Source: an uncultured Candidatus Saccharibacteria bacterium
Lineage (GTDB): Bacteria; Patescibacteriota; Minisyncoccia; UBA6257; 1-14-0-10-44-23
Reading direction: 5' to 3'
NCBI GenBank assembly: GCA_964460325.1
Contig: CAYWPI010000001.1
Location: 11,105-75,104 of the forward strand
DNA length: 64,000 nucleotides
The position numbers and the translations under genes were made by a program. Positions 380 through 55,302 of the stretch are shown here, in pieces. Position 1 is the first letter of the stretch, and each line of letters begins with the position of its first letter. Below the pieces are notes generated by a model that did no database searches, was not told where the DNA came from, and was given only the letters and a program-made list of their open reading frames with translations.

Positions 380-3301
380 TTAAATAATAAAATTAATAAG
401 TCGATTCGATACAAAAATAACTTTCTTGGGAGTGGCACTGAGCCATTTTTTTGTTTCTTCGCGTCCTGTCGCTAATTTCTCCGCATCGGCTTGTGAGATG
501 CCCATTGGTGCCGAAACTTTATCGCGCACTTTTCCATTCACCTGAATAATAAGCTCAAAAGCATCTTCAACAATTAATTTTGCGTCATAAGCTGGCCACT
601 CGCTGACGTGGATACTTGGAGAAGCTTTTAGCTTTAAGCTGTTAGCTGTTAGCTTCTGCCAGAGCTCCTCGGTAAGGTGCGGGGCAAATGGTGCGAGAAT
701 CTGCAGAAATGCTTTCCAGATATCGCTTGGCATTGATTCTTTACTCGCCGCTTCGTTTACAAACACCATCATCGAACTGATTGCGGTGTTAAACGACATT
801 GATTCGATATCCTCTGAGACCTTCTTGATCGTCTTGTGCAGTGATTTTTCCAGGTCAGGGTTCTCCCCTTTTTTCACAACCTTTTCAATTCCGATACGAT
901 AGACGCGCTCCAAGAAACGAGTGCAGCCTAAAATGCCGTGCGGGTCCCAACTGATCGCTTGATTAAACGGTCCCATAAACATCTCATACATGCGGAGTGC
1001 ATCAGCACCAAACTCCGCGATGATATCGTCCGGATTAATGACATTGCCGAGCGACTTACTCATCTTTGAACCGTCCGCGGCGAGCACCATGCCGTGGCTG
1101 GTTCGTTTCTGATACGGCTCGCTTGTTGGCACGAGGCCAAGGTCGCGCAGGAACATATTCCAAAAACGGGAATATAAAAGGTGAAGCACGGTGTGCTCCA
1201 TGCCGCCGTTGTACCAATCCACCGGCATAAAGTATTCGAGCGCCTTCTTGCTCGCAAACTCCTTTTTATTTTTCGGGTCGAGATAGCGCAAGAAGTACCA
1301 TGAAGACCCTGCCCAGTTTGGCATAGTGTCGGTCTCGCGCTTGGCCGGCTTCTTGCACTTCGGGCACTTCACATTCACAAAGCTCTCAATGGCTGAAAGC
1401 GGACTTTCGCCCGTGTCGGTCGGCTGATACTTTTCCACTTTTGGCAGCTTCACGGGCAAGTCTTTTTCTGGAACAGCTACCCAGCCGTCGGTTTCACACT
1501 TAATGAGCGGAATCGGCTCACCCCAATAGCGCTGACGAGAAAATACCCAGTCACGGAGTTTATATTTCACTGTTTTCTTACCGCCGGTAATTTTAATCGC
1601 CTCATCTATAGAGATGAGTGGCTTATTCACTATCGGTAATTTAAACTTTTCAGCGAAAGCTCGGTCACGCTCGTCGTGCTGCGGCACCGCCATAATCGCT
1701 CCCGTTCCATACGTCGAAAGAACATAGTCGGCCACCCATACCGGAATCTCTTGCTTGGTCGCCGGGTTAATCGCCTTGATGCCCTTCAGCTCCACGCCCG
1801 TCTTTCCTTGTCCTGAGCCCGCCGAAGGATCTTTTTCGAAAGCAAGGCGCTCCTCCTCGGGTTTGTTCTTTACGCTCGCGATATACTTTTGAACTTCTCC
1901 AAAGTTAGAGATGAGAGGTCGGAGGTCGGAGATTAGTTTATGCTCAGGAGCAAGCACCATATAGGTTGCTCCAAACAATGTGTCGGGACGGGTAGTAAAT
2001 ACCTTCAGAGAAGGCACTACTTCCTGTAATAGTTCCGGGAATGCGTTTGTACCACCCATGTCGGCTGGCATAAAATGCCCATAATTAGGAAATTGGATCA
2101 ATCTTCCTCCAAGTTCCGCTGCATAAAGCCTTGCGCTTTTTTGATGTCTTTCTTTGTCCTGCTCACCAATAAAAACAACCACTTCGTCGCAGTACTCTTT
2201 GATGTTTTTATCAATAATAAAATCAGACCATAGCCGCTTTTCGGGCGTTGCATCATCGGCAGGTATTTTCGCGGCAGCAACAAGAACCAGCTTCGCAATA
2301 TTTTTTTTACTTTCGCTCAGCCATCGAACTAAAAATGCACCGCCACAGCTGTGCCCGATAAGCACGGTTTGTGCATCGATATTTAGTTTTTCAATTTCAG
2401 CCTTCCATTCTTCATAGTTTGGGCGCCATGCATTCGGCATGACAGGGTTATAAACCTGAATACCTTCTGTAGTGAGTTTTCGGCGCATCCAAGAGATCCA
2501 GTGTTTATCACTATCAGTCTCAACGTTAATAAATGATTCTTTATTCGGTGGACAGCCATGGATCATTACACATTTCGTGATCTTTTTTGTGGCAATCTTA
2601 AAATCAATCTCCACACCTTCGCTCCGGCCAATCCAATTCGTCTGTTGGGTAACCGCTTGGGGAATATAATCTAAACCCTCCAAACCCTTGAGGAGCTTAT
2701 CAGCATACTTCGTGATGGCAATCATCCACTGCTCCTTCTCGCGCTTTTCAACCGGGCCACCGCAGCGATCGCACACGCCGCCGGCCGCCTCTTCGTTAGC
2801 CAGGCCAATCTTATCCTTGGGGCACCAGTTGATATATGTTTTTGCCTTATATGCCAATCCTTTCTCAAAAAACTTCAAAAACATCCACTGCGTCCACTTA
2901 TAATATTCTGGGTCAGTGGTATCGATTTCTCTCTCCCAATCAAAGCCAAAACCCATCGCTTTAAGCTGACGACGGAAGTTGTCAGTATTCTGCTTGGTCG
3001 CCACCGCAGGGTCGATACCCATCTTTATGGCATAGTTTTCGGTCGGCAACCCGAACGCATCCCAGCCGATGGGATATAAAACATTAAAGCCCTCCATACG
3101 GCGTTTGCGCGTGATGATGTCCATCGCAGTCTGCGAACGGACGTGCCCAACGTGCATACCGGCGCCAGACGGATATGGAAACTCAATTAGGCCGTAAAAC
3201 TTCGGCTTTTTACCCCCCGTCTTGGCTTGATAGAGCTTTTTCTTTTCCCAAACGGATTGCCAATGCTTCTCGAAAGTTTTTCTGGCCTCGTTATAATTCA
3301 T
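380..3301 (-). CDS. leuS: Leucyl-tRNA synthetase with an extra inserted alpha/beta-hydrolase (RBBP9/YdeN-like) domain ahead of the CP1 editing domain
   Basis: 973-aa ORF. HIGH motif (HVGH), KMSKS motif, CP1 editing motifs TTRPDTLFGAT and AVPQHDERD. Extra ~188-aa segment (residues ~238-425) carries GHSCGG and YGHF motifs. Confidence 0.9.
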   Translation of the reverse strand: MNYNEARKTFEKHWQSVWEKKKLYQAKTGGKKPKFYGLIEFPYPSGAGMHVGHVRSQTAMDIITRKRRMEGFNVLYPIGWDAFGLPTENYAIKMGIDPAVATKQNTDNFRRQLKAMGFGFDWEREIDTTDPEYYKWTQWMFLKFFEKGLAYKAKTYINWCPKDKIGLANEEAAGGVCDRCGGPVEKREKEQWMIAITKYADKLLKGLEGLDYIPQAVTQQTNWIGRSEGVEIDFKIATKKITKCVMIHGCPPNKESFINVETDSDKHWISWMRRKLTTEGIQVYNPVMPNAWRPNYEEWKAEIEKLNIDAQTVLIGHSCGGAFLVRWLSESKKNIAKLVLVAAAKIPADDATPEKRLWSDFIIDKNIKEYCDEVVVFIGEQDKERHQKSARLYAAELGGRLIQFPNYGHFMPADMGGTNAFPELLQEVVPSLKVFTTRPDTLFGATYMVLAPEHKLISDLRPLISNFGEVQKYIASVKNKPEEERLAFEKDPSAGSGQGKTGVELKGIKAINPATKQEIPVWVADYVLSTYGTGAIMAVPQHDERDRAFAEKFKLPIVNKPLISIDEAIKITGGKKTVKYKLRDWVFSRQRYWGEPIPLIKCETDGWVAVPEKDLPVKLPKVEKYQPTDTGESPLSAIESFVNVKCPKCKKPAKRETDTMPNWAGSSWYFLRYLDPKNKKEFASKKALEYFMPVDWYNGGMEHTVLHLLYSRFWNMFLRDLGLVPTSEPYQKRTSHGMVLAADGSKMSKSLGNVINPDDIIAEFGADALRMYEMFMGPFNQAISWDPHGILGCTRFLERVYRIGIEKVVKKGENPDLEKSLHKTIKKVSEDIESMSFNTAISSMMVFVNEAASKESMPSDIWKAFLQILAPFAPHLTEELWQKLTANSLKLKASPSIHVSEWPAYDAKLIVEDAFELIIQVNGKVRDKVSAPMGISQADAEKLATGREETKKWLSATPKKVIFVSNRLINFII

Positions 3302-3366
3302 GTTAGATAGAAATAAGAAGTATGAAGTAGGAATTATGAATTGAATACATACTTAATTCTTGATTC

Positions 3367-4218
3367 TTAAATCTTAATTCTGAAAACGCGTTCTGCGTTT
3401 TCTTTCACCATCTCCTCTATACGATTATACGAGACGCCGCGGATTTCCGCCATTTTTTGGGCAACCTCAATAACATAAACCGGTTCATTACGCTGGCCTC
3501 GCTTTGACTGCGGGGCGACATACGGTGCGTCGGTTTCAACAAGGATTCTATCCTCTGGAATAAGACGGATGCTCTCGTCATAATCCCGGGCGAACGTAAT
3601 CACGCCGCCGAAGGTGAAATAGAAACCAGCAGCAATCATCTTCTTTGTCGTCTGCGGCGAACCGACGTAAAAATGCGAGATTTTTGGGATATTTTTTAGG
3701 GTTTCATCCGAAAGGATTTCAAGCAGATCCGTATATGCATCGTCACTTCCCTTTGAGGGGCGGCAGTGTATCATAAGCGGCTTGTTTACTGCGACCGCGA
3801 TCCGAGCGTGTTGGACAAATACCTCAATCTGCTTTGCCTTCGTCTTTATCAGATCGGCGGGGCGATAATAGTCCAAACCGCATTCGCCGATCGCTACCAC
3901 TTTCGGATCTTTGGCGAGTTCAAGATAAGTATTTACATCAAAAACCTCTCCACGGCTCGTAAATGCCTTTGCAGCTTCACCGCCACCAAGCTCCTGGCTG
4001 TCGTGATATGACCTTTCCGTATGAGTCGGATGTAAGCCAACCGTTGCATACACGGGTTTATCTTCAAACTCATGCGCCACCTCAATCGCTTTACGCGAAG
4101 TGTCCACCTGTGTGCCAACATTTATAAGGCCAACGCCTGCCTGAAGAGCCCGGCTTATAACCTCCTTATAGTCTTTCTCGAATGCCGCGAAGTGCGCGTG
4201 GGTGTGTGAATCAAACAT
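3367..4218 (-). CDS. tatD: TatD-family metal-dependent hydrolase/DNase
   Basis: The MFDSHTHAHF N-terminus is typical of TatD. The ORF-track start at 4263 is a TTG codon, so the ATG at 4216-4218 is the likelier start. ECGLDY motif present. Confidence 0.8.
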   Translation of the reverse strand: MFDSHTHAHFAAFEKDYKEVISRALQAGVGLINVGTQVDTSRKAIEVAHEFEDKPVYATVGLHPTHTERSYHDSQELGGGEAAKAFTSRGEVFDVNTYLELAKDPKVVAIGECGLDYYRPADLIKTKAKQIEVFVQHARIAVAVNKPLMIHCRPSKGSDDAYTDLLEILSDETLKNIPKISHFYVGSPQTTKKMIAAGFYFTFGGVITFARDYDESIRLIPEDRILVETDAPYVAPQSKRGQRNEPVYVIEVAQKMAEIRGVSYNRIEEMVKENAERVFRIKI

Positions 4219-4289
4219 AGAATTAACTTCATAAGTGTACGTGACTTTGAGTACATTTGACAATTAGTATCAATATCCGCTTTACTTAT

Positions 4290-4715
4290 ACCAGCCTACA
4301 GGGCTGGCGCGTTCAGGTGAGTTTGCGAGGCAGCATTGATTCCCTCTCTCCCTCCCATTCCTGCCCAAACGGATCGCCGTGAAGGCGAACCACTGCCGCC
4401 GCATCTATCTGACGCGCCACCCTGTTTTACATGCCCACAAGCACCCTTCACAGGGTGCGCCGTCCCGGGATTACATCACCCGGCAGCTAAGGAGAACTCT
4501 GTCTTGGGAACTACATCGTGACCTGATTTACTTGGAGGAAATCAGGAAACCAACCCAAGATTGATATAGAGGCTTGAGTGATGTGACGGGGCAGACACCC
4601 CCCCGCAAACGTCGTTCGTCTCCGAAAAATTCTCCTTAGCCTCAACGGTTCTTGGCCGAAAGGCCCGCGAAGTCGAGCCAGCATCCCCTACGGAAGCTGG
4701 CTCGAATTTATTTTC
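4290..4715 (+). ncRNA. Candidate structured non-coding RNA of unknown class
   Basis: A 460-nt gene-free gap between metG and tatD with locally raised GC. Long-range 11-bp inverted repeat GCTAAGGAGAA (~4487) pairing with TTCTCCTTAGC (~4632). Hairpin GAGCCAGC...GCTGGCTC followed by a T-run at ~4683-4715, oriented as a plus-strand terminator. No RNase P, tmRNA or SRP signature recognised. Confidence 0.3.
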
Positions 4716-4722
4716 CAAATAC

Positions 4723-6174
4723 TCAACCTATTCGCGGGAACAGTGAAGTTGCTGGCTTTGAACACAAATACTGCTTTCTTTCTTTATCAACCACAATACA
4801 AGCTTGAATTTTTGCGGCCGTCTCAGGTAAAAACGGCACCAAAAGATATGCGGCAGTAGAAAGCATATAAAGCAAGCTCACTAACGCCGCACCCTGCTCC
4901 GGTGAACCGACAGTAAGCTCCCATGGCTTTTTTGCGTTTACATATCCATCACCATATCCGATCAACTTCCAAATAGCCGCCAACGCATCATGAAAACGCA
5001 AAGACTGCATGTGAACTTCCACAGCCTTCGTTGCCTCTTCGATTGCCGTGGTTGTTCCCGCTTCAATTTTCTGCTCCAAATCAAACGAAAGCGCGCCAAA
5101 CTTTTGCGCCAAAGTCAGCACGCGGCTGGCAAAATTACCCAGCCCGTTCGCAAGATCAGCATTGAAACGCAGTTTAAACTTCTCATCCGTAAAATCTCCG
5201 TCGTCGTCTGAAGGCACTTCGCGCAAAAGATAATAACGGACTGGCTCGACGCCATACTTGGCGACAAGCTCCATCGGATCAATGACGTTACCAATGCTCT
5301 TAGACATCTTGTGACCATCCACTGTTACAAAACCATGCACAAATAGCTTCTTCGGAAGCGGAAGCTTTGCCGAGAGCAAGATAGCGGGCCAATAAACAGC
5401 ATGAAAACGAATGATGTCTTTGCCAATAATATGCAAGTCGGCTGGCCACCGATCGGGAGCCGCAGAGCGATAGACGTTGAGCGCGTCAAACCAAACATAC
5501 ATAATGTGGTGCTCGTCGCCAGGAACCGGAACGCCCCATCCACGTGAGCGGCTTATAGAACGGGAAATGCTTAAATCCTCTAGCCCATGACGGATAAAGG
5601 CAAGTGCTTCATTTTTGCGAAATGCCGGCTCAATAAGATACTCCCCGCTTTGAATAAGCTCCTGCAATTTTTCTTGATAACTCGAAAGCTTAAAAAAGTA
5701 ATTCTCCTCTTCAACCTCCTCCACTGGTCTGCCTGGATGCAAGGGGCACTCACCGCGCTCACTGAGCTCATCCTTGGTATAAAATGCCTCGCAACCAACG
5801 CAATAAAGCCCTTTATAACGCTTTTTATAAATATCGTTACTTGCCTCACAACGCTTCCACAGTTCCTGCGCGGATGCAACGTGATCCGCGCTACTACTGC
5901 GCTGAAACTTGTCTATCGAAACATTGAATACTTTCAGAAAATCCTGAAATGCACCCGCATATTTATCAGTGAGCGCCTTTACGCTCATCCCTTCTTTTTC
6001 TGCCGCCTGAACAATTTTGAGCGAGTTTTCATCGGCGCCGGAAACATAGAACGTATCATCGCCCTTTTGGCGGTGCCAGCGGGCCAAAGTATCGCCCTGC
6101 ACAAATTCAAGCGCATGACCCATGTGCGGTTTGGCGTTAACATAGGGAATGGCGGCAGTGAGGTAGTATTTCAT
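4723..6174 (-). CDS. metG: Methionyl-tRNA synthetase, short form
   Basis: MKYYLTAAIPYVNAKPHMGHA N-terminus (HMGH) and KMSKSIGNVIDP motif. Confidence 0.9.
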   Translation of the reverse strand: MKYYLTAAIPYVNAKPHMGHALEFVQGDTLARWHRQKGDDTFYVSGADENSLKIVQAAEKEGMSVKALTDKYAGAFQDFLKVFNVSIDKFQRSSSADHVASAQELWKRCEASNDIYKKRYKGLYCVGCEAFYTKDELSERGECPLHPGRPVEEVEEENYFFKLSSYQEKLQELIQSGEYLIEPAFRKNEALAFIRHGLEDLSISRSISRSRGWGVPVPGDEHHIMYVWFDALNVYRSAAPDRWPADLHIIGKDIIRFHAVYWPAILLSAKLPLPKKLFVHGFVTVDGHKMSKSIGNVIDPMELVAKYGVEPVRYYLLREVPSDDDGDFTDEKFKLRFNADLANGLGNFASRVLTLAQKFGALSFDLEQKIEAGTTTAIEEATKAVEVHMQSLRFHDALAAIWKLIGYGDGYVNAKKPWELTVGSPEQGAALVSLLYMLSTAAYLLVPFLPETAAKIQACIVVDKERKQYLCSKPATSLFPRIG

Positions 6175-6271
6175 TGGGTAGCTGTGAGCGATTAGCTATA
6201 AGCTTTAAGCTTCTTTAAAAGCATAAGAAAAAATGCCGACTTCCACAAGCTTACAGCTAACAGCTTGTAGC

Positions 6272-7303
6272 TTAAAGCTGGCCTTCTGTCGGCGGTAAAA
6301 CCGGACGATGACTAACCGACCAGTCGCGTAACATCTCTTGCACCAACACCGCAAGGGGCACTGCCAAGATGACGCCAATGAGCCCAAAGATCTTGCCACC
6401 CATAAGAAGCGATACAAGCACAATGACCGGATTAAGATTCGTGCTCTTCCCCATAACAGTCGGAATAAGCAGGTGGCTTTCAATTTGCTGAATAACAATA
6501 AAAAGGACAAGCGTATACAGCCCAAGAGTCACCGATTCAGTTAGCGCAAAAAGCACTGCCATACCGCCTGAAAATATCGGCCCAACGTATGGGATAAGCT
6601 CAAAGGCGCCCGCCAGCATGCCAAGAATAAGACTGTATTTTACGCCCAAAATCCATAAACCGATAAAGACAGCAAGCCCCACAATAAGACTTAGCAGTAA
6701 TTGGCCGCGAAACCATAAACTGATTTTACGCCTAACTCGTTCATAAATCGTGAGTACCTTTTCATGGTGCTGATATGGCAAAACCGTGATTAAAAATTTT
6801 TCAACACCGTCTCGCCCCACGGTAAGATAAAACGAGATAACAAACACGATGGCAGCGAAAAAGAGGCCGCCCAAAAATCGAGAGAAAATAGTGATGATAG
6901 TAATTTTACCGCCAAGAAAACCGGCCGTCACTTCATTTAGTCCCTGAATAAGCCCATCGAACACCCTTGCCCCTTCTTCGCCAAAATTTTGCACAATGGA
7001 ACCCATAAAACCGCCCGAGTTACTCAAGATACTATTAAGTTCCACCAACGCAACGGGAACCAGAAGATAAATAATAATCGCAACAAAAAGAATGGCGATA
7101 ATATAAATTGCCAGCGTGCCCAAAATACGTGGCACATTCTTGCGCTCAAGAAAGCTGACCCATGGATCAAGCGCCGAGGAAATGATAATCGCTAAAAACA
7201 CGGCAACCAAAATTTCGCGGGTCACAAAAAGTGCCGCCACAAGCCCCATCATCGCTAACACCTTCCATAGGGCTCCCCAACTTATTCCTCGGTCTTCAAT
7301 CAT
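6272..7303 (-). CDS. AI-2E family (PerM/YhhT-like) transporter
   Basis: 343 aa with multiple transmembrane segments and AI-2E-like hydrophobic pattern. Confidence 0.7.
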   Translation of the reverse strand: MIEDRGISWGALWKVLAMMGLVAALFVTREILVAVFLAIIISSALDPWVSFLERKNVPRILGTLAIYIIAILFVAIIIYLLVPVALVELNSILSNSGGFMGSIVQNFGEEGARVFDGLIQGLNEVTAGFLGGKITIITIFSRFLGGLFFAAIVFVISFYLTVGRDGVEKFLITVLPYQHHEKVLTIYERVRRKISLWFRGQLLLSLIVGLAVFIGLWILGVKYSLILGMLAGAFELIPYVGPIFSGGMAVLFALTESVTLGLYTLVLFIVIQQIESHLLIPTVMGKSTNLNPVIVLVSLLMGGKIFGLIGVILAVPLAVLVQEMLRDWSVSHRPVLPPTEGQL

Positions 7304-7430
7304 TATAGATATTAAAACACGCCATCGTAGTAACCGTAAACCCCCACACCAAACGTGGAACAGTCTCAGAGTTAGTAGCGGAGCTAGGCCTCCACATGTG
7401 ATGTGGGAGTAAAATATAATTGACCCCGAA

Positions 7431-8702
7431 CTATACGCTTAAGAGCTGCTCAAACTCCTTTTTGTCCTCATAGGGGCCAAGAATCGCCAGATTAAGCCGA
7501 TCATTGGTAAAATACTCAGTTGCCAGCTTTTGGATATCCTCCGCACGAACCGCGTGAATTTTTTTAATTAATTCATCGGTGGTGATGAGCTTTTTAGAAA
7601 GCACCTCCTGCACCCCATAGAAAACGGCCAACGCGTCCGAACCCTCTAATCCAAGCAGCATATTGCCAACATAATGGCTCTTTGCCCGTTCAAGCTCCGC
7701 CGGGCTTACTAACTCTGTTTTAAGCCGGCGGAACTCTTTGAGCATTTCAGTAATGACTGTTTTTGCCTTTGAAAGTTCAAGCCCCGCGGCGGCGGCGAAA
7801 TAACCATGATCGGTATAAAGATCAGCAGACGCCCGAACGTAATACGCAGCGCCGAGTTGTTCTCGCAACAGTTGAAAAAGACGCGAGCTCATTCCTCCGC
7901 CAAGAATATCACCCAATATCTCAAGAGCGAATCGCCGTTTGTCGTGCAAATCAAAGGTCCGAACCCCAAGCACGATATGCGCCTGATCGGACTTTTTGTA
8001 TTTCAACAGCACCTGCGGCGAGGCCTGCTGTTCCTTCACTGCCGACTTACCATGCTTTTTGCCATGCTCCATTTTGCCAAACAGTTCAGTTGCTCGCTTG
8101 ATCATTTTTTTCTCGTCGAACGCGCCGGCAATAACAAACGTAGTGGCTGACGGAACATAATGCTCACTGCGATAGCGCACAATATCCTCACGAGTCATTT
8201 TTGTAATAAGTTCTGGTTCGCCAGCAATATCCCACCCGGCAGGCTGATCGCCATACAGCAAATGCATGAACAGGTCGCCGATTTTGCGTTGCGGCATATC
8301 TTCATACATATGTATCTCTTCGATAATGACACCCTTTTCTTTTTCAATCTCTGCCGCGTCAAAAATGGGGTTGAGATAAAGATCAGCGATAATATCCAGT
8401 GCTTTCTCTCCCTTATCAGCACTCACCTTGGCGTAATAACCAGTATACTCATGACTGGTAAACGCGTTTGATTGAGCACCTAGGCCATCAAGTTCGCCGG
8501 CAATCATACTTGGCTTTGGCCGATTGATGGTGCCCTTAAAACAGAGATGCTCTAAAAAATGCGATATGCCATTGATTCGCTTTTCTTCATACTTACTGCC
8601 CGTTTCAACAAGCGCGAGCACGGTAAGCGCAACGGCATTTTCCTGCGGAACCGTAATAATGCGTAATCCGTTTTCAAGAATAGTCTTATTAAAATGCTGC
8701 AT
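7431..8702 (-). CDS. M16-family zinc peptidase (pitrilysin-like)
   Basis: Inverted zincin motif HFLEH near the N-terminus; 423 aa. Confidence 0.8.
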   Translation of the reverse strand: MQHFNKTILENGLRIITVPQENAVALTVLALVETGSKYEEKRINGISHFLEHLCFKGTINRPKPSMIAGELDGLGAQSNAFTSHEYTGYYAKVSADKGEKALDIIADLYLNPIFDAAEIEKEKGVIIEEIHMYEDMPQRKIGDLFMHLLYGDQPAGWDIAGEPELITKMTREDIVRYRSEHYVPSATTFVIAGAFDEKKMIKRATELFGKMEHGKKHGKSAVKEQQASPQVLLKYKKSDQAHIVLGVRTFDLHDKRRFALEILGDILGGGMSSRLFQLLREQLGAAYYVRASADLYTDHGYFAAAAGLELSKAKTVITEMLKEFRRLKTELVSPAELERAKSHYVGNMLLGLEGSDALAVFYGVQEVLSKKLITTDELIKKIHAVRAEDIQKLATEYFTNDRLNLAILGPYEDKKEFEQLLSV

Positions 8703-8823
8703 GCCAGTTTTCTTTAAATTAATATTTAACTAGAAAATTGAGCACCCCGTGAAATACAAAGTTTATTTCACTGGGGTGGATTCAATCACAAGATGTATTC
8801 CAGCAGTATAAACGAGAATGAAT

Positions 8824-8869
8824 TTTAAAAAAAGACAGCGCCCCGCCACCTCCGAAGAGGGGCGGGGCG
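8824..8869 (-). terminator. Rho-independent terminator of the high-GC cassette gene
   Basis: Hairpin CGCCCCGCC...GGCGGGGCG followed by a T-run on the minus strand. Confidence 0.6.
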
Positions 8870-8894
8870 AGCGGCGACCGCGCAGAGAATCGTG

Positions 8895-9200
8895 TCATCC
8901 CAAGGGAAGGGCACGGAAGAGCTCGGGATTCGAAAGAGCCCAGAGCGTTCCCGCCATGCCCCTCTGCGTCCAGTGGGGACAGACCGGCTTGGAGGGCTCC
9001 TGGCGTATGAGTCGCGAGGAGGTGAACTCACTCTGACGGATCTCGTAGAGGGAAAAGACTCGCTCGGCTCTCCCGGGCTTCGCTTTCTCCGCAGTCCAGC
9101 GCGAAAGTGCGACTGCATCGGATTCAGCCTCGAATTCGATCCGGATTACCGCGGTGCACTTGCCACAGTGATCGATCATGAGCAGGTACTGCATTGGCAC
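8895..9200 (-). CDS. Hypothetical 101-aa protein, high-GC cassette a; possibly YciI-like or Cys-containing
   Basis: Canonical SD GGAGGTG 5 nt before the ATG and its own terminator. Local GC ~60% against a ~45% backbone. Confidence 0.5.
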   Translation of the reverse strand: MPMQYLLMIDHCGKCTAVIRIEFEAESDAVALSRWTAEKAKPGRAERVFSLYEIRQSEFTSSRLIRQEPSKPVCPHWTQRGMAGTLWALSNPELFRALPLG

Positions 9201-9240
9201 CTCCTTGTCGTGACGGCAACCTTGTTATACTCCCGGCGCC

Positions 9241-10614
9241 CTACAGGGTCAATTGCTTATTCAAATATTGATCCAGCTCCGCGATCAACACTCTCTCTTG
9301 CTGCATACTATCCCGGTCACGGACCGTCACAGCCTTATCGTCTATAGAATCAAAATCCACGGTCACGCAAAGCGGTGTGCCGATCTCGTCCTGCCGGCGA
9401 TAACGTTTGCCGATAGACTGCGTTTCATCATATTCACAGACGAATTGCTTTGAAAGATGCGCATAGAGCGGTTTGGCTATCTTTGCAAGCTCGTCCTTTT
9501 TTGAAAGCGGCAAAATGGCAACCTTTACCGGCGCCAACCATTTCGGGAACTTCAAGACGACTCTTGAGTCGTCTTGACCCCGCATAGCCTCCTCAGAGGC
9601 GACGTGGGGTATTCCTTCTTCTGTGTAAGCTTCAAGCAGGGCGACCAAAACCGAACGATCAACACCGAACGAAGGCTCAATAACGTGCGGCAAAAACTTG
9701 CTCTTTTGGTCATCTGGATCGGCATACGTTAAGTCTTGTTTAGAAGCCCCTTGGTGACTCTTTAAATCAAAGTCGCCGCGATAGGCTAAGCCGTACAACT
9801 CTTTGCGGCCAAAAGGATAATCATATTCAATATCCACCGTTCGCTTGGAATAGTGCGCGCGATCTGCATCCGGGATATCAACATAGTGTAACTTATCTGA
9901 GCTGACACCAAGATCATGCAACCATTTTTTCATTTGCATGAGCCAGTGATCAAAGTGCGCCTCCCACTCCTGTTCACGAACAAAATACTCAATCTCCATC
10001 TGCTCGAACTCACGGGTGCGGAAGATGAAGTTACCCGGAGTGATCTCGTTTCGAAACGCCTTTCCGATCTGCGCGATACCAAACGGCAACCGACGACGGG
10101 TCGTATCAAGGATATTCTTAAACTGAACAAACATCGCCTGCGCAGTTTCAGGACGAAAATAAACCGTATTCGCCTTTTCTTCGGCCGGACCAAGAAAGGT
10201 TTTAAGCATTAGGTTGAACTGCTTAGCCTCGGCAAATGAGCTTTTTGCCTTACAGCTCTCGCATGGTCCCTTTGCATCAATCTGATCGGCTCGGAATCGC
10301 GCGTGGCACTTCTTACACTCCACGAGCGGATCGTTAAACGTCGCCAGGTGACCAGAAGCCTCCCACACCTTTGGGTTCATAATAAGCGCCGCATCAATAC
10401 CCACCATATCCGCGCGCTGGCGGACAAAACGGTTCCACCACTCGTCTTTAATGTTCTTCTTCAGCTCCGCGCCAAGCGGACCATAGTCCCAGCTGTTTTG
10501 TAGTCCGCCATATATCTCGCTTCCAGGAAAGATAAAGCCTCTGCGCTTGCAAAGCGAGATTATTTTATCCATTAAGTCCGCGGACTTTACTTTTGATTTT
10601 TTATCATTAACCAT
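9241..10614 (-). CDS. glyQS: Glycyl-tRNA synthetase, class II dimeric type
   Basis: 457 aa. N-terminus MVNDKKSKVKSADLMDKIISLCKRRGFIFPGSEIYGG is typical of GlyRS. Confidence 0.9.
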   Translation of the reverse strand: MVNDKKSKVKSADLMDKIISLCKRRGFIFPGSEIYGGLQNSWDYGPLGAELKKNIKDEWWNRFVRQRADMVGIDAALIMNPKVWEASGHLATFNDPLVECKKCHARFRADQIDAKGPCESCKAKSSFAEAKQFNLMLKTFLGPAEEKANTVYFRPETAQAMFVQFKNILDTTRRRLPFGIAQIGKAFRNEITPGNFIFRTREFEQMEIEYFVREQEWEAHFDHWLMQMKKWLHDLGVSSDKLHYVDIPDADRAHYSKRTVDIEYDYPFGRKELYGLAYRGDFDLKSHQGASKQDLTYADPDDQKSKFLPHVIEPSFGVDRSVLVALLEAYTEEGIPHVASEEAMRGQDDSRVVLKFPKWLAPVKVAILPLSKKDELAKIAKPLYAHLSKQFVCEYDETQSIGKRYRRQDEIGTPLCVTVDFDSIDDKAVTVRDRDSMQQERVLIAELDQYLNKQLTL

Positions 10615-10645
10615 TGGCGTATTTGCTACATGTCACGTGTTATTC

Positions 10646-12364
10646 TTACGGGCTAACCTGCTTGTCTTGCGCATCAAGCGTTGGATCGCTGATTAAGATT
10701 GTCGTAAAAGGGTAGATTTTGTCAAAATACGACGCATCAACAAATAAGTCCATCGCGTTCACTGTTGTTTCTCCAATAAGCGTTGGAAATTGATTAATCT
10801 GATTGCTTGACGGCGTTATCTCCACCTGGAACACCAATCGGACAGGCTCATCAATAATACCCTTGGTAGCATTTATCTTGCCCGCAATCCAGACAAACTC
10901 TTGCGTTCGTTCGTTATATTGGGGCGCGACACCATTTGTCGCAAAATACTTTCCTGTATAACGAACATGCGGGCCCAAGAACGTCTTCAGCGTAACTTCA
11001 TCCATATCAGTCGCCTCGTTGCGCACAACCCAGTGCATAGTAAAAGTGGTTGGTTGACCCACACGAAGCGGCAAGGGGCCGCTGTTGGTAATACCCGAGT
11101 CATCCTTAAAAAACGCATCCACAGCAGGGCGCAACATACCCTTTACTTTTGTCTCAAGCGCAACCGATCCAATGGTTCGCCCTGAAGAAACTTTCGGAGG
11201 AACAGTTGGTGATTCGATTTCAGCAAGCATTTTTAAAACAAAATGCTTATCGCTGATACGCTTGATGGGATAATCAGATTTCACCTTGGCCGAAAAAGAA
11301 ACTGAACCGCTCTCGCCGGGACGAATCACATTAAGATCAGGAACGCGCGCGGCATTCCACTGAATACTTGCGTCCGAAGAGCGATACACGCCCTCATCAG
11401 AATCAATTTCGCTCATATCAAACATATCGCCAATCAACTTGGCAGTAATAATCACGTCTTTAAGCCCCACATCGGTATTATTGCGATAGGTCAGTGTATA
11501 CGAAAGCAAATCTCCAGGCGTGGCAACATAATCCACAGCTCGCTCCACGGTGGCGACAAGCGAAAGGGGCGACGGCGAAAGAGACAGCGAGGCGGTCTTT
11601 TGATTAACCAAATATGCCTTTCCTAGAAACGAAGTATTCACGCCAACCATAAAATCAAAAAAAGCATTATCGGGCCCGGACATGCTTCCTTTTATCGTAA
11701 AACTGCCCTTTGAACCAGCGCGTAAATCGCCGAGCCTCCAGTTTGTCGTTCCTTCATCTGGGGTCAAGGTTGACGAGATAAACGTAAAGCCCCGAGGATA
11801 CTCAAACCCAAGCACCAAATCATAAAAATCAGTATCCGCCTTGTTTTCGTAATCAACCCTTATTTCAAACGTTTCTCCCGCAAATACTTTTTGAGGAAGC
11901 GCAAGATCAAGACTTATGCCAGACTCACCAATACTGATATCTTTGCTGGCTTGCTTTTCAAAGCGCGATCCAAGATTGGTTGGCACATACGAAAGCGCCG
12001 CCCGCAGCTGCACTAAATTATTTTCACCCGAAACTGGCATAATGCGAAACTCTTGATTGGTTACCGTTCCCTTCCCAAGACTTCCCAATGATTTATTAAT
12101 TACGCGCTTACTGGCTGGCTCAGTCATAAAAACCATGCCATCTGGCAAACTTATCGATAACGAAGTTTCTTGCGCCACGCCACTGCCAGTATTACTAATT
12201 GAGACTTTCGCGGTAAATGGAACGCCAATTTGCGCGCTATCGGGCGCGTTTACCACAACTTCAACACCACCCGCTTGGCGAGCTTGATACCATAAATACG
12301 TAATCAAGCTTCCGCCGATCACAAAAAGCACAACAAAAAGAATAATGATTGTTTTCCAGCGCAT
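10646..12364 (-). CDS. Membrane-anchored surface protein with repeated beta-rich domains (DUF11/CARDB-like)
   Basis: N-terminal transmembrane segment and a 572-aa Ser/Thr/Gly-rich repetitive extracellular region. Confidence 0.5.
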   Translation of the reverse strand: MRWKTIIILFVVLFVIGGSLITYLWYQARQAGGVEVVVNAPDSAQIGVPFTAKVSISNTGSGVAQETSLSISLPDGMVFMTEPASKRVINKSLGSLGKGTVTNQEFRIMPVSGENNLVQLRAALSYVPTNLGSRFEKQASKDISIGESGISLDLALPQKVFAGETFEIRVDYENKADTDFYDLVLGFEYPRGFTFISSTLTPDEGTTNWRLGDLRAGSKGSFTIKGSMSGPDNAFFDFMVGVNTSFLGKAYLVNQKTASLSLSPSPLSLVATVERAVDYVATPGDLLSYTLTYRNNTDVGLKDVIITAKLIGDMFDMSEIDSDEGVYRSSDASIQWNAARVPDLNVIRPGESGSVSFSAKVKSDYPIKRISDKHFVLKMLAEIESPTVPPKVSSGRTIGSVALETKVKGMLRPAVDAFFKDDSGITNSGPLPLRVGQPTTFTMHWVVRNEATDMDEVTLKTFLGPHVRYTGKYFATNGVAPQYNERTQEFVWIAGKINATKGIIDEPVRLVFQVEITPSSNQINQFPTLIGETTVNAMDLFVDASYFDKIYPFTTILISDPTLDAQDKQVSP

Positions 12365-12440
12365 GAAAATAAATAACTAATCAGATCACCGAAAACTCTC
12401 GGCAAGATACACGATATATACCTTATTAGTTTAGCATATG

Positions 12441-12962
12441 CTACGTCGCAACGCGGCCAAGGCGATACACACCTTCGATACTGGAAAATGTCTTTACGCA
12501 CCGCATGCAGTAATAATGCGCATCACGACTAGAAAAATACTCTGGATTCTTTGTCTCGCACAATGCGCACGTCGCGTGTCTCGGATCAAAACCCAAAATA
12601 GTTAATATGTGAAGCGCAGAGGGTTTTGCAGAGGCAAGTTCATGCCATAAACGCTCATCAGCGTGATGTTCAGAGGTAAGTGAGCGCACAATCTGACACA
12701 GGCCAATCTGCTCTCTGGAAATGTTCACGTTGCCTCGCGCCGGCAAGGCGTCAACAATCTGAATACCGTTCTTCTCAACCAATCGAACCTGCACGCGACG
12801 CATTGGCTGCAGATAACTTGAAAGACGAGAAGTAATATGCCCAGCGCTGCGCGCCCGTGCCATTATCCGGCCAAGCTCTTTGGTGTATAAAAAAATGCGG
12901 GCGTCGGTTTCGCCAGCAATCTCTCTGTCTAATACAATCGCTTCGGTGAGATATTCGCGCAT
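12441..12962 (-). CDS. recO: DNA repair protein RecO (short)
   Basis: N-terminal OB-fold-like MREYLTEAIVL... and a C-terminal Cys4 zinc-finger pattern. Confidence 0.65.
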   Translation of the reverse strand: MREYLTEAIVLDREIAGETDARIFLYTKELGRIMARARSAGHITSRLSSYLQPMRRVQVRLVEKNGIQIVDALPARGNVNISREQIGLCQIVRSLTSEHHADERLWHELASAKPSALHILTILGFDPRHATCALCETKNPEYFSSRDAHYYCMRCVKTFSSIEGVYRLGRVAT

Positions 12963-13031
12963 GCCTTCAGCATATCACAGGAGCCAAGTCGCGCATGCGC
13001 AACTTGGCTCCGATATTATACTTCCGCCGCT

Positions 13032-13448
13032 CTAACCGGCAGCGAGTTTGTACGCTCGTTCGCTAACGGCCTGCACCAGTCCTTCACCAACCTGGGATCG
13101 TTCGTATGCCATCTGGCATCCGCACATACAATATTCCCGCCTGACGGCCTCCGTGTCAGAGATGGCAATACGCAAGCAGTCGCGCCCATCCTCCGTATCG
13201 CGACGACACAGCTCCGAAACAAGTCGTAGTGGTGAAGCGCCCTGTACTGATCGCACCTTGTGATCATCGACAACCACAATGTCGCGCCGAGGATCGTGCA
13301 TGCAAAGCAAACGACCCCCTTCAACCGTATCGCTTTCCATAAAAACAAAGTGCTGTCGCGGGAAACGTACACCTAGCAATTCTTCGAGTACCTCACGGAA
13401 AGACTCGGTAAGCCCAATCCAGATGACCGTAATCGCCTTCTTGAGCAT
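13032..13448 (-). CDS. Hypothetical 138-aa protein, high-GC cassette b
   Basis: SD AAGGAGGA upstream of the ATG. High GC. C-terminal CMCGC motif. Confidence 0.45.
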   Translation of the reverse strand: MLKKAITVIWIGLTESFREVLEELLGVRFPRQHFVFMESDTVEGGRLLCMHDPRRDIVVVDDHKVRSVQGASPLRLVSELCRRDTEDGRDCLRIAISDTEAVRREYCMCGCQMAYERSQVGEGLVQAVSERAYKLAAG

Positions 13449-13539
13449 CTCATCCTCCTTGCTTGACGCAAAAAATCCACCGGGAACCGTGTTTGTAGAA
13501 ATACAAGCCTTTTACTAAAAAGTCAAGAAACGGATGGCT

Positions 13540-14058
13540 TTACACTCCCTGCGCCTTTGAGCCACGGGCGCGGCGAATCAGTTCGTCGCGCAGCTGTTCT
13601 GCCTCTGCGCGGGACAAAGCCGGAAGTCTTCCCTCGGCGTGCATACCCGATGTTCCTCGGCGGGTTACAAGGGCGCTTGCGCCGGCTGTTTGAATATGCA
13701 AATCGGAGAGCCCAAGAATGCGAGCCAAGATGCCACGATAGATATCCACATTCTGGATGCGCTCATAAGGAATAGTTACGTAACGCTTATAGATAACGCC
13801 TGATTCTTTCCGAAAGCCATTCTCAGTAAGTTCATAGAGAAAGTAACCATACGAAAGCTTCGCCCAGATCCAGCACAGCGCCAGAACGATAATCAGCATG
13901 GGCCAAAACAGATTGAGTGGAATGCTATAGCCTTGCTCCAAGGCCACGACCGCGACGTCGGCAAGTATCCAAAAACGGACAACCACTAAAAATAGTGTCC
14001 AGCGAAATGCCAGTCTTATGAAAAACAGCCAGAGCGCTTTCGGGTCAAGATGCTTCAT
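13540..14058 (-). CDS. Bacterial PH-domain membrane protein (YdbS/YdbT-like)
   Basis: Two transmembrane helices followed by a bPH_2-like domain. Start chosen at MKHLDPK. Confidence 0.55.
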   Translation of the reverse strand: MKHLDPKALWLFFIRLAFRWTLFLVVVRFWILADVAVVALEQGYSIPLNLFWPMLIIVLALCWIWAKLSYGYFLYELTENGFRKESGVIYKRYVTIPYERIQNVDIYRGILARILGLSDLHIQTAGASALVTRRGTSGMHAEGRLPALSRAEAEQLRDELIRRARGSKAQGV

Positions 14059-14082
14059 GATCTGTGATGTTATGTTTTTATT

Positions 14083-14162
14083 GTGCGGGATATTGAATTT
14101 AGTTCGAACCGTGTTCGCGGCGCCGCCCGCCACCGGCGCACGCGAAGGGCGAACCGGTCTTT
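14083..14162. repeat. IR-A left arm: 80-bp perfect inverted repeat
   Basis: Exact reverse complement of 15258-15337, compared by eye. Confidence 0.85.
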
Positions 14163-14265
14163 AACAATTTCAAGTTGTTTTTTGGCGGCAAATTCTTGAT
14201 TTGATTGTATCCTAATTTGCTGAAAAGAAAAGGAACCCTTAACGATCGCGTACTGCGATGGGTTC

Positions 14266-14670
14266 CTACGGGGGCGTTGCAGCCCCAGCTGAAGACGACA
14301 GAGATGGATTCAGTCGTCGGGTTCGGACGAGAGCGAGCAGCGTCAGTAGCTCTTGCGGAGCAACGTATCCACCAAGTTGCTCCACCATCAGTGCGGCCTT
14401 CTCGATGTCTTCCTTGCTGAACTGGCTGGGCGCTTCGGGTCGCAACTGCTTCGCGATGCCATGAAGAGCGCGAGCGTCTTCTTCTGTCTTCCCGCAAGCC
14501 CTTGCAATGGCCAGCAAGGTCTTCAGACGCGGCACGAGTGTGATCGTCTCCTCGATGCGCCGGATCTGCGAGATCGCGATCTTCGCCTTTTCGGCGAGTT
14601 GCTCGCGACTTAGACCTGCTTCCTTGCGCCAAGCCCGAACGGTCGCGCCGACACCTTGAACTTCGTTCAT
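14266..14670 (-). CDS. XRE-family HTH transcriptional regulator
   Basis: HTH signature LSREQLAEKAKIAISQIRRIE. High GC. Start overlaps the upstream ORF stop (ATGA). Confidence 0.6.
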   Translation of the reverse strand: MNEVQGVGATVRAWRKEAGLSREQLAEKAKIAISQIRRIEETITLVPRLKTLLAIARACGKTEEDARALHGIAKQLRPEAPSQFSKEDIEKAALMVEQLGGYVAPQELLTLLALVRTRRLNPSLSSSAGAATPP

Positions 14671-14850
14671 CCGCGTTTCTCCTGAATGAGCTCGTGAATG
14701 GCGCGGATGGACATCACGATCCAGAATCCGCCGACGCCACCGGCAATCGAAGGAACGATCTTGATTCCGATCGCGTACCCGATCGCAGCTACGGTCAGCA
14801 AGACATACGCACCGATCGTGAAGAGCATGGCTGCTTTAGCGGTTTCCATC
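14667..14850 (-). CDS. Small membrane protein (~60 aa)
   Basis: METAKAAMLFTIGAYVLLTVAAIGYAIG... SD AAGGAGGAG. Translationally coupled by TGATG/ATGA overlaps on both sides. Confidence 0.4.
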
Positions 14851-15093
14851 ACTCCTCCTTCTTCTCGTTCGGACGAACGATGATCATGCTCCCCCCGAAG
14901 CCCAGCTTCCATCCTAGGAGCCAAGCGATGATGAGGATCCCGATCGAGATCCCGATGCCCGGCAGGATCGCAGGACGCCCGACGGCCCACAATGGGACGC
15001 CGAAAGCTCCTGCCCACATCAGCACGAAGAAGATGCGGTAGACGACCGCCTCACGCGGACCGAGCTCGTGCACGGTCAAGTTGGCAGGTCCCA
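14850..15093 (-). CDS. Small membrane protein (~81 aa)
   Basis: MGPANLTVHELG... with two transmembrane segments. First gene of a three-gene minus-strand operon. Confidence 0.35.
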
Positions 15094-15257
15094 TGTGTAC
15101 TCCAAGTGCCACAATTGGCCTGCTGAATATGCCACATCTCAAAATAAAAAGCAAATATAAAACAAAAACAGCCCCTTTGGGCCGTTTCTCAAAAATGTTC
15201 TTTTCTTCTTTCCCTCTGATTCGAGCCGATGGATTTCCGGGCTCTTTGGCGGTTTTG

Positions 15258-15337
15258 AAAGACCGGTTCGCCCTTCGCGTGCGCCGGTGGCGGGCGGCGC
15301 CGCGAACACGGTTCGAACTAAATTCAATATCCCGCAC
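15258..15337. repeat. IR-A right arm
   Basis: Reverse complement of 14083-14162. Confidence 0.85.
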
Positions 15338-24909: not shown

Positions 24910-26130
24910 TTAATAAGGCAAAGGGAATTGCTTACACAATTTTACCACTTCTTTTTTGACTGACTCGGCCGGCTCTTTAAGATCAAACAAGTGATGCATA
25001 AACATTGCAATCAGCTTCATTTGTTTTTCTTTCATACCCCGACTAGTAACTGCCGGCGTGCCAATGCGAACCCCCGACGGCTTAAACGGCTTTTCATCGC
25101 CCGGCACCGAGTTGCGGTTGGCCACAATCCCCGCCTGTTCAAGCATCTGCTGAGCCGCCATGCCGTCTAAGCCCTTATTGCGCATGTCCACTACCAACAA
25201 GTGGCTGTCGGTTCCGCCAGAAACCAAATCAAACCCATATCCAGAAAGTGCCGCCTCAAGCGCCTTCGCGTTTTTCACAATCTGCTTTGCATAAGACCGA
25301 AAGGCCGACTTTTGCATCGCTTCGAACATCCAGGCAATAGCCGCCGTCTGATTATTATGCGGCCCACCCTGCAACCCCGGCATAATCGCCTTATCAATAA
25401 GCTTTGCCAACTCCTCGCCTTTAGTGAAAATAACTGCTCCACGAGGGCCGCGCATTGTTTTATGCGTAGTTGCCATCACCACGTCTGCATACGGAAACGG
25501 ACTGGGATATACGCCGCCGGCAATAAGCCCCGCCACGTGAGAAACGTCAGCAACCAATTTTGCGCCCACCGCATCGGCAATAGCTCGCATCTTTTTAAAA
25601 TCCAACAATCGGCTATATGAGGTGGTGCCCAAAATAATCATCGCTGGCTTATGCAGCTTTGCCAGTTGCGCCACTTCTGCATAATCAATAAGTCCGGTTT
25701 TAGGGCTCACGCCAAATTGCACCGACTTATAAAACGTTCCGGAAAAATTCACCGGATGCCCGTGTGTTAAGTGTCCGCCATCTGCCAGGCGCAATCCCAT
25801 TACCGTATCACCAGGCTTTGCCAGCGCAAAATAAATTGCCAAGTTCGCTGGTGAACCCGAATATGCCTGCACGTTGGCAAACCACTGGCCCTCCTTAAGC
25901 CCAAACACCTTCAAGCCCTCTTTCCGCGCAAGATTCTCAATCTCGTCGCAGAACTCGTTGCCCGGATAATATCGCCGACCCGGATAGCCTTCTGAATATT
26001 TATTAACGAGCGGACTGCCGAGGATTTTCAGCATCTCCGGATCAGCGACATTTTCCGATGGAATCAGATCAATCGTTTCCTGCTGGCGTTTTATCTCCTT
26101 CTTGATGAGTTCATTGAGCTTTTTTGACAT
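24910..26130 (-). CDS. glyA: Serine hydroxymethyltransferase
   Basis: PLP-lysine region VMATTHKTMRGPRG. Confidence 0.9.
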   Translation of the reverse strand: MSKKLNELIKKEIKRQQETIDLIPSENVADPEMLKILGSPLVNKYSEGYPGRRYYPGNEFCDEIENLARKEGLKVFGLKEGQWFANVQAYSGSPANLAIYFALAKPGDTVMGLRLADGGHLTHGHPVNFSGTFYKSVQFGVSPKTGLIDYAEVAQLAKLHKPAMIILGTTSYSRLLDFKKMRAIADAVGAKLVADVSHVAGLIAGGVYPSPFPYADVVMATTHKTMRGPRGAVIFTKGEELAKLIDKAIMPGLQGGPHNNQTAAIAWMFEAMQKSAFRSYAKQIVKNAKALEAALSGYGFDLVSGGTDSHLLVVDMRNKGLDGMAAQQMLEQAGIVANRNSVPGDEKPFKPSGVRIGTPAVTSRGMKEKQMKLIAMFMHHLFDLKEPAESVKKEVVKLCKQFPLPY

Positions 26131-35645: not shown

Positions 35646-35666
35646 CACACGCGAACGTCGAATCTA

Positions 35667-35707
35667 TCTGGGTCGGTCCGTAACAGGATCGACCCAGATT
35701 TCTTTTC
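35667..35707 (+). terminator. Terminator of cassette f
   Basis: Hairpin TCTGGGTCG...CGACCCAGA followed by TTTCTTTTC. Confidence 0.6.
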
Positions 35708-35878
35708 TATAAAGAATGATTTGTCACTGAGACTAAGATTTGCTTAAATCTAATGTGTTCATTATGAGAATCCTAAGTTGAGCGCCTATATGAAGCTTAA
35801 AAAAAATTTCTTATTTTATCTGACCGTTGTCATTATGCCACTTATCTTTCTGGCGCTTCTTATCGCCATTATCTTTGT

Positions 35879-55251: not shown

Positions 55252-55253
55252 AT

Positions 55254-55283: not shown

Positions 55284-55302
55284 ATAATGTTATGTAAGAA
55301 AA

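Follow-up and report, generated by a model that had tools for sequence, protein, structure and literature searches.

The window analysed here is a 64,000-nucleotide (64-kb) stretch of contig CAYWPI010000001.1 from an uncultured Candidatus Saccharibacteria bacterium. Our subject is the 504-nt spacer (4219–4722) that separates metG, encoding methionyl-tRNA synthetase (MetRS; 4723–6174, minus strand; Pfam tRNA-synt_1g, 2e-95), from the gene of a TatD-family hydrolase (3367–4218, minus strand; Pfam TatD_DNase, 4e-71). The spacer is poor in open reading frames (ORFs): the MetRS ORF ends at 4723, and TatD starts at ATG 4218, its 283-aa product being on record as a called gene. Every large ORF within 380–15337 lies on the minus strand, genes are tightly packed, and the GC content reaches 0.605 over 4300–4499 against 0.43–0.51 to either side. 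An initial annotation had singled out this GC-raised, gene-free gap in a minus-strand gene run as the site of an antisense-oriented structured RNA with its own terminator; the gap and its composition are as described. Our comparisons indicate that the spacer is very probably a separate plus-strand gene, divergent from tatD, convergent with metG and thus antisense to both neighbours, with a predicted transcript of ~420 nt (4293–4714), and that it belongs to an undescribed family limited to the metG–tatD spacer of one Parcubacteria-like sub-clade of the candidate phyla radiation (CPR).

By its MetRS the window belongs to Patescibacteria/CPR; among named proteins the closest come from Liptonbacteria (64%) and Harrisonbacteria (61%), both Parcubacteria-group candidates. 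Blastn and nhmmer searches with the window spacer found no match among 160 MetRS-anchored loci, and the comparison was therefore moved to synteny and structure. Exact-protein look-up returned no record for the window MetRS and, for TatD, only Logan contig L161, assembled from SRR15237813, whose sequence does not differ from that of the window and brings no variation. Syntenic loci were gathered at MetRS identities of 84–56%: L162, L163, L164, L166–L171, L172 and L081/L082 (81–84%), L173 (77%), L174 (75%), L175, L019 and L001 (72–73%), L177 (67%), L084/L004 (61%) and L085 (56%). Gene order is the same throughout, peptidase–AI-2E–MetRS–spacer–TatD–LeuRS, which in the window comprises, besides metG and tatD, an M16 peptidase (7431–8702), an AI-2E transporter (6272–7303) and leucyl-tRNA synthetase (LeuRS; 380–3301), a minus-strand housekeeping run. 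A GC-rich body lies between promoter and terminator in every related spacer. In CPR whose MetRS identity is only about 50%, metG and tatD are separated by 0–50 nt, and the long spacer is thus an insertion specific to one sub-clade.

The predicted transcript is bounded at both ends by signals on the plus strand. Upstream, a sigma-70-type promoter is predicted from a −35 box TTGACA (4257–4262) and, after an 18-nt spacer, a −10-like box TTTACT (4281–4286, matching four of six positions), which would place the start at ~4293. A TTGAC(A/G/T) hexamer stands in the same orientation in 13 of 13 related spacers as well as in the window, mostly 38–41 nt from the TatD ATG; L177 also has a TTGAC hexamer in this orientation, and on the opposite strand of these spacers it almost never occurs. 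The −10-like boxes of the relatives read CATAAT, GATAAT or TATAAT at N16–17, giving a family-wide spacing of N16–18. TatD has a promoter-like site of its own on the minus strand at 4263–4234. In the L172 spacer (3947–4386, minus strand), a perfect inverted repeat (GACCCCGCACCTATTGAGGAGG...CCTCCTCAATAGGTGCGGGGTTGAC, each arm ~27 nt long) immediately precedes the RNA promoter and accounts for a second TTGAC hexamer upstream of the −35 box.

Downstream, the candidate intrinsic terminator (4673–4714) consists of a stem (4673–4682 with 4696–4705, a 10-bp core, plus an inner 3 bp) followed on the plus strand by a U-tract at 4707–4714 (TTTATTTT); the full arms of the hairpin span 4670–4686 and 4692–4708. 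The stem opens with a family-conserved CGAGCC, and the terminator ends 8 nt short of the metG stop codon. The initial annotation had placed an 8-bp hairpin with a T-run here, at 4683–4715: the plus-strand object is real, its size and start having been slightly misjudged. A simple consensus terminator scan did not call it, probably because the stem is interrupted. Every related spacer has a hairpin with a U-tract on the plus strand, beside the MetRS stop. An intergenic position, its own promoter and intrinsic terminator kept in relatives, and no conserved reading frame are generic attributes of an independent small RNA (sRNA) gene, and the window spacer and its relatives display all of them.

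Folding favours the same strand. The plus strand reaches −173 kcal/mol, with z = −6.8 to −7.2 relative to shuffles as against −4.0 to −4.3 for the minus strand, and the several GC hairpins noticed earlier are predicted within a fold that far surpasses its shuffles (z = −6.8). Across members the plus-strand z-score runs from about −4 to −9.5 (−5 or below in eight of ten), and it is the more negative orientation in nine of ten. A G–U test of strand in the long-range helix described below was uninformative, as two G–U and two A–C cells are symmetric between the strands; the strand call thus rests on promoter, U-tract and z-scores.

A further element is an 11-bp long-range inverted repeat, already noticed in the initial annotation and confirmed as GCTAAGGAGAA (4486–4496) and TTCTCCTTAGC (4630–4640), 11-nt arms of 100% complementarity with 133 nt between them. 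Perfect inverted repeats of at least 11 nt arise in 21 of 1,000 dinucleotide shuffles of the gap. Independent minimum-free-energy (MFE) folds of every member at MetRS identity of at least 77% contain a long-range helix with an invariant GGA anchor, and the window version of this helix, hereafter helix A, is exactly that repeat. In our alignment, eight distinct versions of the helix stand in register with an artificial A6 linker. Standard pairs fill 97.7% of cells, a percentage biased upwards by the way the strands were chosen, and 8 of the 11 pairs are changed on both sides. The helix has a covariation score of 0.711 versus 0.274 in shuffles (0/500 reach it), and the score collapses once the partner is slid by one column.

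A MAFFT alignment of the 3′ tails misaligned the window, and the seed of a covariance model of this tail (R1) was consequently restricted to four relatives (L164, L166, L175 and L173), with the window left out. R1 nonetheless matches the window at 4632–4717 on the plus strand (23.7 bits, E about 3e-5), its best match in the 64 kb; it also matches L162 and L081, and nothing in 60 more distant loci. An nhmmer profile matches the window copy with E = 0.014. Across the seven sequences of the R1 alignment, pairing in the terminator stem is 100%, and five of nine pairs are changed on both sides. L166 and L175, 70% identical, have 91 consensus pairs in common; 11 show compensatory changes, and no pair is broken. 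Judged from these alignments, the helices of a plus-strand RNA are maintained by compensatory change. The proposal of an antisense, independently terminated structured RNA is thereby backed both by the signal orientation kept in relatives' spacers and by the compensatory changes within the very repeat first noticed, together with the plus-strand model match.

The predicted RNA is modular. Its 5′ domain (4298–4425; MFE and centroid folds) is closed by a long stem with interruptions, ACAGGGCUGGCGCGU.../...ACGCGCCACCCUGU; the large loop inside it is C/U-rich and contains a small hairpin (4371–4391; MFE and centroid). Next come a hairpin GCACCCU-UCAC-AGGGUGC (4441–4458; predicted in both folds), helix B, predicted to pair GCCGU (4459–4463) with ACGGU (4645–4649), and a hairpin CCGGG-AUUACAUCA-CCCGG (4465–4483). 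Read from the folds, a 'CCGUC ... GACG' helix analogous to helix B flanks the hairpin beside helix A in L081, L162 and L163, and its analogue in L164, L166 and L175 is a local hairpin. Helix A itself, supported by covariation and present in the MFE fold, pairs GCUAAGGAGAA (4486–4496) with UUCUCCUUAGC (4630–4640), the latter preceded by the junction CGAAAAA (4623–4629).

Enclosed by helix A are a long hairpin, CUUGGG.../...CCCAAG (4503–4559, with CCUGAUUU/AAAUCAGG at 4522–4546), and a helix GAGGC/GUCUC (4569–4573 with 4618–4622) that surrounds GAGUGAUGU/ACGUCGUUC, whose three G–U pairs are possible on the plus strand only. Inside the GAGGC/GUCUC helix sits a hairpin with a C-rich loop, CGGGG-CAGACACCC-CCCCG (4587–4605). 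In the relatives the interior of helix A likewise holds at least two hairpins, one with a C-rich loop, and A-rich junctions on each side (..CGAAAA before the 3′ strand). Between helix A and the terminator, a small hairpin GGCC-GAAA-GGCC (4654–4665) has a counterpart at the equivalent position in L164, L166, L175, L173 and L172. Comparative support covers helix A, the junction motif, the position of this small 3′ hairpin and the terminator.

Transcript sizes predicted from the same signals differ about four-fold: ~110 nt in L084, ~150 nt in L177, 190–250 nt in L163, L081, L162 and L174, 300–350 nt in L172, L173, L164, L166 and L175, and 424 nt in the window. The 110–150-nt RNAs of intermediate relatives are mainly a stem around a CCUCCUCCCUCCC- or CUGCCUCC...CCAACCCUCCC-type loop plus a terminator, and in its layout, with a stem that closes a CU-rich loop, the 5′ domain of the window resembles the entire small RNA of L177 and L174. 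On the sequences compared, the family evolves so fast that nothing but the 3′ tail, the helices and a handful of short motifs stays recognizable.

Some relatives depart further from a single unit. In L019 (5450–5945) and L001 (5450–5987), on the minus strand of these loci, there are two tandem units, each with a −10-like box and a hairpin/U-tract; the second opens with ATGGCCAATCAGGG at the predicted start site, both copies being readable as MANQGRA in a frame that later indels break. In L002 (5516–6718; MetRS 61%) a 1.2-kb ORF-poor stretch after MetRS holds several antisense-oriented hairpin and U-tract units.

Known RNA families do not account for the locus. Rfam 15 identifies ten tRNAs only over the 64 kb, with no family in the gap at gathering scores or, across 651 nt (4150–4800), at permissive thresholds up to E = 10. 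The spacers of ten related loci give no family either, and all these searches together produced just chance-level scores (Entero_OriR 19 bits, DUF3800-XI 12.5 bits). The initial annotation had offered RNase P RNA, tmRNA, 6S or a novel RNA. RNase P RNA of types A and B has no Rfam match in the window, in 4150–4800 or in the ten loci, and a segment that might recall it, GGAGGAAAUCAGG, is a local hairpin and has no Rfam match. For tmRNA, ARAGORN finds 0 tRNA/tmRNA genes in 3500–5500, and Rfam has no match. Rfam likewise reports no signal recognition particle (SRP) RNA; an SRP-like string in L162, CCGGAAGGAAGCA, is one strand of the covarying helix A and not a hairpin. The gap has no Rfam match to 6S RNA, and the MFE and centroid folds are predicted to be multi-branched, not a rod with a central bubble. 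The RNA is thus very probably not RNase P RNA, tmRNA or SRP RNA, and we found no evidence for 6S RNA; the novel-RNA option is what is left of the list.

Other origins were set aside on similar grounds. Neither the window nor its relatives match the Rfam models of 6C or RoxS/RsaE. A riboswitch or T-box leader has no Rfam match, and no plus-strand gene lies downstream of the RNA, because the next gene, metG, is convergent. As to coding, six-frame peptides match between close pairs only and hop frames, the window ORFs match nothing, Pfam returns nothing for six gap ORFs, and the spacer indels are not multiples of three. A mobile-element origin found no similarity in phage or plasmid collections, and there are no direct repeats.

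What the family keeps, apart from its helices, is pyrimidine-rich. The constant feature, as the fold models have it, is a set of exposed C/U-rich tracts (CCUCC, CUGCCCA). In the window this tract lies in the 5′-domain loop at 4340–4370 (TTCCCTCTCTCCCTCCCATTCCTGCCCAAAC; as RNA, UUCCCUCUCUCCCUCCCAUUCCUGCCCAAAC), includes both motifs and has a predicted probability above 0.6 of being unpaired. For almost all members, the longest stretches that the folds leave single-stranded are rich in C: UUCCCUCUCUCCCUCCCAUUCCU in the window, CCUCCUCCCUCCCUCCCUCCCCU in L084, ACCUCCUGCCCAACCCUCCCAUCCCCC in L001, CCUCCUGCCAACCCUCCCAA in L019, C8 in L081, ACCCCCCUCA in L162 and AACCCUGCCCA in L166; the L177 loop holds CUGCCUGCCUCCACCAACCCUCCCUCCC. 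CUGCC or CCUCC motifs are common to L166, L175, L173, L174, L001, L019, L084 and L177. The 17-nt pure pyrimidine run of the window is reached in 12 of 1,000 shuffles (p about 0.012).

We propose a mechanism by analogy with C-rich-loop riboregulators elsewhere. The sigma-70-type promoter (−35 box at 4257–4262) would drive a folded non-coding RNA (~4293–4714) as far as the intrinsic terminator, which stops 8 nt from the end of metG. Its helices would serve as a scaffold displaying single-stranded C/U-rich tracts (4340–4370 in the window), which could pair in trans with purine- or G-rich sites of other transcripts and so alter the translation or stability of these targets, as such regulators do. 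The 3′ domain of helix A and its hairpins, common to the closest relatives, might add stability or further binding sites. The assignment as a trans-acting riboregulator with the pyrimidine tract as its seed is a tentative one. As a whole, a separate gene and a new family acting through such a seed form the best explanation we have, one to which we give somewhat less than even credence.

A number of observations weigh against this explanation. Shine–Dalgarno (SD)-like motifs (GGAG, GAGG or AGGA within 20 nt upstream) precede ~5 of 48 long ORFs of the window, and a plain anti-SD mechanism would hence have few targets. When the C-rich loop was scanned for duplexes across the 64 kb, no start codon showed a convincing pairing site. 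Since C exceeds G in the composition, any bases left over from pairing tend to be C anyway. A base-pairing sRNA of 420 nt with several junctions would be unusual. The 5′ domain, modelled by covariance from the window sequence alone (R2), matched none of 17 related loci, so that the link from this domain to the small C-rich RNAs is one of layout and short motifs alone. On the gene itself, the start and end of the transcript are predictions, and the window −10 box, at 4/6, is the weakest in the family. Finally, the strands of helix A were picked by complementarity, which inflates pairing counts, although distinct pair types at fixed positions are less affected and independent MFE folds recover the helix.

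The scarcity of SD motifs has a counterpart in the start regions of the window. Many genes have a TATAAT-like box 6–10 nt before the ATG ('gctataatatgcaaaaacATG', 'gtgataatattggaacATG'); examples of such start regions are those of 59581–60585, 56261–57061, 24910–26130 and 38109–38639, all on the minus strand. These sequences suggest that initiation in this organism is largely SD-less and near-leaderless. The loop motif CUGCCUCC occurs in L084 (4435–4624) and L177 (3004–3238), and CUGCCCA occurs in the window at 4361–4367. CUGCCUCC is complementary to GGGAGGCAGCAG, which we take to be a near-universal stretch of 16S rRNA and the target of the EUB338 probe; the window itself contains no 16S gene. 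The complementarity of CUGCCUCC to 16S rRNA may be chance for a C-rich motif.

Other functions for a real plus-strand RNA deserve weighing against the riboregulator. Multi-helix members of 190–420 nt with A-rich junction strands, covarying scaffold helices, recurrent GGA/AGGAAAC purine motifs and an SD-poor genome that shrinks the pool of ribosome-binding-site targets would all suit an RNA that binds a protein or the ribosome, be it as a scaffold or decoy like 6S/Ms1 or CsrB or as a partner of S1, a KH-domain protein or Rho. We rate this as rather unlikely: the RNA has no Rfam match to 6S, CsrB/RsmZ or any protein-binding family, its predicted fold lacks the rod shape and the central bubble, the smallest relatives are plain stem-loop sRNAs of 110–150 nt, both length and sequence change very rapidly, and no gene linked to the locus is a candidate partner. 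A bolder version sees, in place of a simple base-pairing sRNA, a new modular structured-RNA class of a mostly SD-less CPR lineage, in which the tracts (CUGCC(U/C)CC or CCUCCC) would be the contact with a G-rich element of the translation machinery, the 16S stretch GGGAGGCAGCAG being one candidate, or with a pyrimidine-binding protein. The product would be a ribosome- or ribonucleoprotein (RNP)-directed regulator that expanded from a core of 110 nt to 420 nt as domains were added. It is unlikely in our estimate, although in an SD-poor lineage it would, if true, be considerably more interesting. The locus might instead be a cis-acting unit, inserted in convergent antisense into an ancestral metG–tatD–leuS operon and uncoupling tatD–leuS from metG, with polymerase collision or cleavage of double-stranded RNA blocking or processing metG read-through. 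The 0–50-nt metG–tatD distance of distant CPR, TatD's own promoter-like site and the RNA terminator 8 nt from the metG stop fit such a unit; so does the metG-sense side of that hairpin, which has no U-tract, leaving metG read-through fully antisense to the RNA. Yet the RNA overlaps neither coding sequence, interference or antisense pairing needs no intramolecular helices whereas these are kept by compensatory changes, and the conserved exposed C-rich motifs would go unexplained, all of which makes a purely cis role quite unlikely.

The remaining explanations deny a new functional RNA. A promoter-like box and a terminator hairpin, both serving the neighbours, with GC-rich hairpins drifting neutrally between them would accord with the very fast turnover, with lengths of 190–540 nt among close relatives and no BLAST similarity. 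This is improbable in view of compensatory changes in three independent comparisons, a promoter/terminator orientation kept in 15 spacers, plus-strand z-scores of about −4 to −9.5 with eight of ten members at −5 or below, and a genome otherwise tightly packed. CPR RNAs are often divergent, and the size falls within the RNase P/tmRNA range, so a housekeeping RNA (RNase P, tmRNA, SRP or 6S) too divergent for Rfam models might be imagined. It is very improbable given the Rfam result (no match in 651 nt even with E allowed to reach 10, and none in ten relatives), the empty ARAGORN search, the range of ~110 to 420 nt among relatives, the absence of the gene from the metG–tatD locus in most CPR and the lack of any universally conserved core nucleotides seen. 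Equally remote is a small, proline-rich protein gene or a structured minus-strand leader of tatD–leuS: ORFs of 41–61 aa exist on both strands, and the second unit of L019 and L001 has an ATG at its predicted start and a shared MANQGRA, but frames switch between close pairs, the window ORFs match nothing in the comparisons or in Pfam, indels are not multiples of three, promoter, U-tract and better z-scores are all on the plus strand, and Rfam shows no T-box or other leader.

Elsewhere in the 64 kb we saw no second gene of this C-rich RNA type, other long gaps holding small ORFs or ordinary terminators, and no enrichment of CCCTCCC. Two intervals, 8703–8894 and 35646–35878, fold far better than their shuffles (z about −7.4 and −3.7 to −5.7, respectively) and on inspection are ordinary strong terminator hairpins with U-tracts of adjacent genes. 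A third, 55249–55714 (466 nt, between tRNA genes at 55162–55248 and 55715–55786), is without a long ORF or an Rfam match and has an unremarkable fold (z about −1.7). In the neighbouring housekeeping run, the 973-aa LeuRS (380–3301, minus strand) contains a Ser_hydrolase/alpha-beta hydrolase domain at residues 264–411 (Pfam PF06821, 5.5e-15). LeuRS of the relatives L162 and L019 is 794–822 aa, and the insertion may therefore be lineage-specific.

CPR genomes are tiny and tightly packed, which makes a 500-nt non-coding gene between two housekeeping genes conspicuous. The locus represents a covariation-supported RNA family, bounded by a predicted promoter and terminator, that current Rfam models miss. 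It shows how, inside one narrow clade, an RNA gene can apparently grow from ~110 to ~420 nt and retain nothing constant but its helices and a motif rich in pyrimidines. Were the seed idea true, 'C-rich loop' riboregulation would reach a third, very distant lineage that seems to make little use of SD sequences, and one would ask which targets the motif has in an SD-poor genome. The family offers a test case for CPR metatranscriptomes from groundwater and soil, and is a candidate Rfam entry.

Our search of the literature on structured or small RNAs of CPR/Patescibacteria turned up no regulatory RNA described for these bacteria and no description of such a family. The closest known parallels are the cuckoo/ar14 sRNAs of Alphaproteobacteria, whose CCUCCUCCC loops sit on stems that vary by compensatory mutations; the stems lose similarity beyond genus level, the C/U-rich anti-SD-like loops stay constant, and one member, NfeR1, silences ntrB at the ribosome-binding site (PMC4615179, PMC10746234). 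Like this group (cuckoo/alpha-r14, including CcsR1-4/RSs0680 and NfeR1), the window family appears to be independently transcribed and built of modular hairpins with C/U-rich unpaired loops, and its relatives L084 and L019 contain CCUCCUCCCUCCC. As to the seed, the window CCUCC tract is predicted unpaired, but SD motifs are rare upstream of genes, and the scan of the 64 kb found no target. Differences are the absence of CCTCCTCCC from 4200–4730 of the window, the lack of an Rfam match, the different phylum, a 420-nt RNA with nested long-range helices versus two to four adjacent hairpins, and an SD-poor host.

The host of 6C is rich in leaderless mRNAs. The 6C sRNA of Actinobacteria is reported to bind mRNAs via C-rich loops (PMC6486639); the C-rich loops of both 6C and RoxS/RsaE, the latter from Firmicutes, pair with G-rich sites of several mRNAs (PMC6486639, PMC5419742). 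Both are, like the window RNA as predicted, structured sRNAs exposing C-rich loops. They measure 60–120 nt with two to three hairpins, against up to 420 nt in the window family, whose motif (CCUCC, CUGCCCA) is rich in both C and U instead of being a simple run of C, and they show no sequence or covariance-model similarity to it. With 6S RNA and Ms1 the family shares poor primary-sequence conservation in RNAs of 180–300 nt that are found mainly by structure; it differs in lacking a rod-shaped fold with a central bubble and a 6S match in Rfam, and in the four-fold length range of its members. OLE, GOLLD, ROOL, raiA and HEARO resemble it as long GC-rich intergenic regions in AT-richer genomes, with many covarying helices and no function known. 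These classes have no Rfam match in the window and keep many invariant nucleotides across phyla, in contrast to a family that is confined to a narrow clade, variable in size and conserved at few positions. The kind of gene, an intergenic sRNA gene with C-rich loops, is thus known; the family is new, and is unusual in that its members span a four-fold range of sizes and nest their long-range helices.

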